From assembly GCF_003018235.1 (NCBI RefSeq), contig NZ_CP027437.1: 64,000 nucleotides of DNA; one strand, 5' to 3'. Below, piece after piece: positions 53,850 through 53,884 of the stretch. How positions within the stretch are numbered: position 1 is the stretch's first letter; every line of letters begins with the position of its first letter. Origin of the DNA: Escherichia coli (GTDB taxonomy: Bacteria > Pseudomonadota > Gammaproteobacteria > Enterobacterales > Enterobacteriaceae). The notes under the pieces are model-generated. The model saw only the letters and a program-made list of their open reading frames with translations, searched no databases and was not told the origin of the DNA. The translations under genes and the position numbers were made by a program.

Positions 53850-53864
53850 TACTCCCCCCCAGTA
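53850..53864. promoter_or_regulatory. RcnR operator site 1 (TACT-C7-AGTA; reverse complement TACT-G7-AGTA)
   Basis: Matches the remembered RcnR recognition pattern TACT-G6-N-AGTA in the rcnA-rcnR intergenic region. Confidence 0.6.
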
Positions 53865-53869
53865 CCTGA

Positions 53870-53884
53870 TACTACCCCCCAGTA
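53870..53884. promoter_or_regulatory. RcnR operator site 2 (reverse complement TACT-G6-T-AGTA)
   Basis: Same pattern as site 1, 20 bp away. Confidence 0.6.

Follow-up and report, generated by a model that had tools for sequence, protein, structure and literature searches.

The Ni(II)/Co(II) sensor RcnR of Escherichia coli was reportedly footprinted by Iwig and Chivers in 2009 (J Mol Biol 393:514), and a 2011 paper by Blaha et al. is said, by its title, to concern a shared operator through which RcnR represses both rcnA and rcnR. The 2009 footprint is cited in four later papers, whose summaries of it are mutually consistent (PMC7055735, PMC3902906, PMC5146963, PMC7105576). [quoted passage not shown] This operator is described as a tandem of two type-1 sites, in which the unbroken G/C tract confers the A-form character (PMC3902906). 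Apo-RcnR binds it directly, and Ni(II) or Co(II) brings about its release (PMC7055735, PMC3902906).

The rcnRA operator of Salmonella Typhimurium (probe rcnRAPro; Osman et al. 2016, PMC5016687) likewise comprises a pair of TACT-(C tract)-AGTA sites, with 5 bp between them. The probe, of about 35 bp (TACT-C7-AGTA-TAGAA-TACTA-C7-AGTA), is bound by two RcnR tetramers with a KDNA of 1.5e-7 M, which rises to at least 5.9e-6 M with Ni(II) and to 1.5e-5 M with Co(II), that is, a weakening of at least 40-fold and about 100-fold, respectively (PMC5016687). The Salmonella operator differs from that of E. coli by one extra C in the second site (TACT-A-C7-AGTA) and by its spacer, TAGAA instead of CCTGA. 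Further away in the same repressor family, the E. coli formaldehyde sensor FrmR also acts at Pfrm through an operator of tandem type-1 sites (Denby et al. 2016, PMC5146963), but the arms there are ATAC/GTAT, the GC tract is 9 bp long, the centres stand 31 bp from each other, and the effector is formaldehyde. The type-2 operators of CsoR (Streptomyces lividans CsoR; Tan et al. 2014, PMC3902906) share with those of RcnR a G/C tract flanked by GTA-containing dyads, and in both cases recognition is shape-based and relies on A-form character. However, a type-2 operator has two short interrupted G/C tracts and takes two tetramers per site, whereas an RcnR site has one unbroken tract and takes one tetramer (PMC3902906).

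Here we analysed a 64-kb stretch of E. coli DNA, hereafter the window, in which the 35 bp at 53850-53884 are almost certainly the operator, with its two tandem type-1 sites, to which the Ni(II)/Co(II) sensor RcnR binds. On the plus strand this segment reads TACTCCCCCCCAGTA-CCTGA-TACTACCCCCCAGTA, with TACTCCCCCCCAGTA at 53850-53864 and TACTACCCCCCAGTA at 53870-53884. Both 15-mers are exact instances of TACTNCCCCCCAGTA (TACT-N-C6-AGTA), the reverse complement of the published TACT-G6-N-AGTA. The two sites announced by an earlier sequence-only reading, visible as C-tracts on the plus strand, are confirmed. They are also the sole matches in the 64 kb: a scan with TACTNCCCCCCAGTA on either strand, allowing up to 2 mismatches, returned just these two sites, and the looser TACT-N7-AGTA gave no further match in the window. 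A search for repeats groups the two as one 15-nt direct repeat (93% identity), whose copies start 20 bp from each other. The same reading had placed the sites 20 bp apart, which is right when counted start-to-start or centre-to-centre but not as an edge-to-edge gap, which is 5 bp. The centres have elsewhere been given as separated by 19 bp (PMC5146963), and the difference from the 20 bp that we count centre-to-centre is probably one of counting convention. In each site the arms are 7 bp apart and the C6 and C7 tracts are unbroken; in the rcnA-proximal site N is a G on the minus strand, which makes a G7/C7 tract. A CsoR type-2 operator would have its tracts split by 2-4 bases and about 11 bp between its AT-rich repeats, as against the 7 bp between arms seen here. 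The features of the locus are collected in Table 1.

Table 1. Features of the rcnA-rcnR locus in the window, with the loci of one group of third sites found in other species
Feature	Position	Strand	Details
rcnB, periplasmic accessory protein, downstream of rcnA	52431-52769	-	Pfam RcnB PF11776, RefSeq
rcnA, Ni/Co efflux membrane protein, 274 aa, His-rich loop	52988-53812	-	NF007454, Pfam NicO PF03824, RefSeq
Putative rcnA -10 hexamer TAGAAT	53846-53851	-	Proposed from conservation
rcnA-proximal RcnR site	53850-53864	-	TACTGGGGGGGAGTA; exact motif match
Spacer CCTGA, 5 bp	53865-53869		Sets 20 bp centre-to-centre, about two helical turns
rcnR-proximal RcnR site	53870-53884	-	TACTGGGGGGTAGTA, N = T; exact motif match
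Putative rcnR extended -10 TGcTATGAT (TGCTATGAT)	53894-53902	+	Proposed; starts 10 bp past the rcnR-proximal site
rcnR, CsoR/RcnR-family repressor, 90 aa	53933-54205	+	NF011613, PF02583 (Trns_repr_metal), RefSeq
Third-site loci of Enterobacter, Klebsiella and Lelliottia			L023, L025, L039, L047, L052, L053, L060, L062, L063, L070, L072, L080, L092

The sites lie in a 120-bp intergenic region (53813-53932) between the divergent rcnA and rcnR genes, a location on which the open reading frames, the NCBIfam and Pfam scores and the RefSeq annotation agree, as the earlier reading had it. Indeed, the rcnR frame scores 197 bits on the NCBIfam equivalog NF011613 (cut-off 138), and the rcnA frame 558 bits on NF007454, the model for Ni/Co efflux transporters (cut-off 195). 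The RcnR encoded in the window carries His3, Cys35, His60 and His64, the H-C-H-H (W-X-Y-Z) sensory fingerprint that sets the Ni/Co-sensing RcnR apart from CsoR and FrmR (PMC11672702). The RefSeq gene order in strain SK1144 is yehA, rcnB, rcnA, rcnR, TPP riboswitch, thiM and thiD, and K-12 has the equivalent genes. The riboswitch (RF00059, 71 bits, 54297-54393, plus strand), between rcnR and thiM, is an ordinary one and is already annotated.

The 120-bp intergenic region is 100% identical to positions 2185797-2185916 of K-12 MG1655, where the rcnA-proximal site corresponds to 2185865-2185879 and the rcnR-proximal site to 2185845-2185859. Over the 1775 bp that span rcnB to rcnR, the window shows 25 differences from K-12, all of them outside the intergenic region. 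In every testable respect (sites, spacing, flanking genes) the locus is like the K-12 rcnRA operator, and no difference from it was detected. The proposal that the pair serves Ni/Co-responsive control by RcnR is thus supported by the scores of the flanking genes, by the RefSeq annotation and by this 120-bp identity. The match to the published footprint is likewise supported, through the secondary descriptions cited above and the sequence identity to K-12.

On the published model, a single apo-RcnR tetramer would sit on each TACT-G6-N-AGTA site under metal scarcity and repress both genes, touching the TACT/AGTA arms through the minor groove and reading the A-form-like shape of the G/C tract, while the flanking DNA would be engaged non-specifically ('wrapping'). 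Binding of Ni(II) or Co(II) at the His3/Cys35/His60/His64 sensory site would lower the affinity for DNA, and this would derepress the efflux genes rcnA-rcnB together with rcnR itself, which is autoregulated.

How is the operator kept in other species? One genome per species was scanned for the DNA pattern of two exact sites 0-30 bp apart, and 78 other species were found to have it, which with the window make 79 sequences. An exact copy of the pair was required for entry into this set, which makes site conservation inside it circular; its independent evidence consists of location, orientation, N bases, spacer and flanks only. The set includes Escherichia, Citrobacter, Enterobacter, Klebsiella, Raoultella, Kosakonia, Salmonella diarizonae, Cedecea, Buttiauxella and Rahnella, further Hafnia, Serratia, Erwinia, Tatumella and Yokenella, also of the Enterobacterales, and Vibrio, Shewanella and Chromobacterium. 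Wherever the flank was long enough, the pair lies in the same orientation between an rcnA-like and an rcnR-like gene, with the rcnA-like start 31-43 bp away on one side, the rcnR-like start 45-99 bp away on the other, and diverged flanks. The exception is the divergent gene in Shewanella (L037 8542-8913; L015, L044): there the tandem operator lies upstream of an rcnR homologue (about 68% identical), and the divergent gene is not rcnA but a small unannotated open reading frame for a 123-aa multi-pass membrane protein with no Pfam match.

The N bases vary hardly at all. On the plus strand, N is C in the rcnA-proximal site (C7) in 78 of the 79 sequences and A in the rcnR-proximal site (A-C6) in all 79. 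Of the spacers, 62 are 5 bp long, 16 are 6 bp and a single one is 24 bp, and their sequence is variable apart from a conserved last A; the outer flanks GATTC ... GAAT are also conserved. The 24-bp spacer is that of Vibrio diabolicus (L065 4404-4457), which has TTTAA spacers between three consecutive sites, the central site having a shorter tract (TACT-A-C5-AGTA). In 18 species a third site follows 6 bp past the second. In Enterobacter, Klebsiella and Lelliottia (loci in Table 1) it reads TACT-C(A/C)-G5-AGTA (TACT-N2-G5-AGTA), with the G tract on the opposite strand; this group has 6-bp spacers, hence a 21-bp period, and an RcnR about 62% identical to that of E. coli. In Kosakonia and an Enterobacteriaceae MAG (L045, L046, L069, L071, L084) the third site is AACT-C7-AGTT.

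Two further loci were found through their protein and therefore provide a non-circular check. On the IncHI2 plasmid pC309-VIM4 of Enterobacter hormaechei (L009, ~1260-2273) both sites are exact, with a different spacer and different flanks. On a Ralstonia megaplasmid, whose RcnR is 62% identical, a single TACTCCCCCCTAGTA lies between the rcnA-like and rcnR-like genes. A mobile rcnR (92% identical) occurs on 411 plasmids, from hosts that include Enterobacter, Salmonella and Citrobacter. On pC309-VIM4 the rcnA-like reading frame appears to be truncated beside IS26, and a 365-kb E. coli replicon classed as a plasmid (CP137936.1) carries an rcnR that is 100% identical.

Of 5426 complete E. coli genomes, 5361 contain the intergenic region, with at least 99% identity in 5038 of them, and the other 65 gave no match to it. 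Among 5088 matched genomes, 4561 are 100% identical over a 49-bp core around the sites. In the variants sampled, the common SNPs fall outside the sites (G to A or T at 53845, A to G at 53910, C to A at 53922), and changes inside the operator are rare. Two of these alter the number or integrity of the sites. Strain 097H6 (L014, NZ_CP187781.1) has a 5-bp deletion, equivalent to 53850-53854, which takes TACTC from the rcnA-proximal site and so costs it one arm, together with part of the putative rcnA -10. In the wastewater isolate WW2 (L002, NZ_CP081881.1, 330-395), a 23-bp tandem duplication, CTGATTCTACTCCCCCCCAGTAC, gives three RcnR-type sites in a 143-bp intergenic region. In ETEC4085 (L008, NZ_CP122634.1, 1-400) an IS5-family element adjoins the intergenic region, 8 bp from its rcnA end, and takes the place of the rcnA start; the operator and rcnR are intact despite this insertion.

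Homopolymeric tracts in a promoter region raise the question of slipped-strand mispairing, and the C7 and C6 tracts could be read as phase-variation switches that alter promoter geometry through gain or loss of a base, rather than primarily as protein-binding sites. The length of the rcnA-proximal tract, C7 in the window (53854-53860), does differ in a few assemblies, with C8 in PE15 (L003) and C6 in RM10809-3 (L004) and NCTC9082 (L013). We nevertheless consider this explanation very improbable. Such variants are rare, as the identity of the 49-bp core attests, and across the matched E. coli genomes tract length is not frequently polymorphic, C6 and C8 occurring as isolated variants only. In PE15 rcnA is also frameshifted, which suggests a homopolymer sequencing error, and at least some of the tract variants may be of this kind. 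Furthermore, the C7 of the first site is kept in nearly all of the cross-species set, as reported above, whereas the C6 of the second was preset by the search pattern and hence says nothing about tract constancy. Finally, published binding data already account for the sites (PMC3902906, PMC7055735, PMC5016687, PMC5146963).

It is more improbable still that the sites serve, or are shared with, another CsoR-family paralogue such as FrmR. FrmR is a close relative of RcnR, the protein in the window scores 76 bits on the FrmR model, and both repressors use tandem type-1 G/C-tract sites (PMC5146963). [quoted passage not shown] Least credible of all is that the pair consists of chance short palindromes in an AT-rich intergenic region: TACT-N7-AGTA does give two matches in 5 of 100 shuffles, but once the C6 tract is included none of 100 dinucleotide-preserving shuffles gave two or more (0.12 matches to TACTNCCCCCCAGTA expected with up to 2 mismatches), and the position and orientation of the pair are kept in the 78 species.

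With the pair read as the RcnR operator, the cross-species alignment also bears on the two promoters. Read on the minus strand, the rcnA-proximal site supplies, with the final TA of its outer AGTA arm, the start of the TAGAAT hexamer. An equivalent hexamer with T as its sixth base (TAGAAT, TAGTAT, TAGATT and the like) is found in 75 of 75 species, and the rcnA start codon stands at a near-constant distance from the site, mostly 36-37 bp within the range given above. This conservation and the near-constant distance suggest TAGAAT as the rcnA -10, in which case transcription of rcnA would start near 53839. On the other side, a TGnTAnnnT element starts 13 bp beyond the second site in 41 of the 75 species, and is moved to +30/+31 in most lineages that have a third site. 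Since it shifts with the third site, the putative extended -10 of rcnR seems to track the last operator site; transcription of rcnR would then start near 53909. Assuming spacers of 17 bp, the -35 position of each promoter would fall inside the rcnR-proximal site. This geometry suggests that the operator overlaps both divergent core promoters. If the operator does cover both promoter cores, bound RcnR would exclude RNA polymerase from the two of them, in agreement with the shared operator reported in the 2011 title.

Other promoter candidates were considered. A generic sigma-70 promoter scan of the region called neither of the proposed -10 elements and returned two other weak candidates instead. 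We rejected its minus-strand -10, TATTAT ending at 53814, because transcription would start inside rcnA, and its plus-strand -10, TACAAT ending at 53946, because it lies inside rcnR. By symmetry with the rcnA side, TAGATT at 53882-53887 could be taken as the rcnR -10; we ranked it below the extended -10, since its T at position 6 is present in about half of the species only, while the extended -10 stands at a fixed distance from the last site.

The fixed N bases, the conserved last A of the spacer and the conserved outer flanks fit a scheme in which the outer arms double as -10 elements and repressor and RNA polymerase would compete over the same bases. Possibly, although we lean towards the opposite view, the motif is less degenerate than its 'N' implies, with this base constrained and the two sites not interchangeable. 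Part of this reading may already be contained in the 2009 comparative analysis.

The operator also sits within a larger imperfect inverted repeat, with 16-nt arms at 53838-53853 and 53881-53896 that are 75% complementary, and the symmetry thus reaches about 12 bp past each outer arm. This extended symmetry, over 53838-53896, fits mirrored promoter elements as well as flanking repressor contacts.

A second palindrome, TGATAATAATTCTTA, is found at 53812-53826, where it takes in the initial base of the rcnA start codon as well as the expected position of the ribosome-binding site. A 2007 paper is said, by its title, to tie RcnRA to iron homeostasis, and rcnA belongs to the Fur-2 iModulon of E. 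coli (PMC10164565). Set against the Fur 7-1-7 consensus TGATAATnATTATCA, the palindrome agrees in 12 of 14 positions, and the window has no second match of this kind, but a match of this quality is by itself within chance, as one arises in 5 of 20 shuffles. At the same position, a match of at least 11 of 14 is present in 31 of 74 related species, as against 0 of 74 in a control flank. TGATAATAATTCTTA may be a Fur site or, alternatively, a translation-control element.

In conclusion, the RcnR operator pair is already known, and its DNA is here the same as in strain K-12 of the published RcnR work. The sequence-only reading had itself presented the pair as a known feature of low interest, and we concur, the locus being that of the characterised K-12 operator. 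The scan picked out a textbook metal-responsive operator, and the understanding of RcnR is unaltered by it; what is now given is the exact coordinates of both sites and of the likely promoter elements. Builders of Ni/Co biosensors who employ the RcnR operator may draw some modest benefit from the cross-species comparison, as it lists variation relevant to them: the fixed 'N' bases, the 5-bp versus 6-bp spacers and the third sites of Enterobacter, Klebsiella and Kosakonia, to which can be added the E. coli variants found in nature, whether they carry three sites or a damaged one. As for the regulation of rcnA itself, the Fur-like palindrome at its start codon could add an iron input to the metal response.
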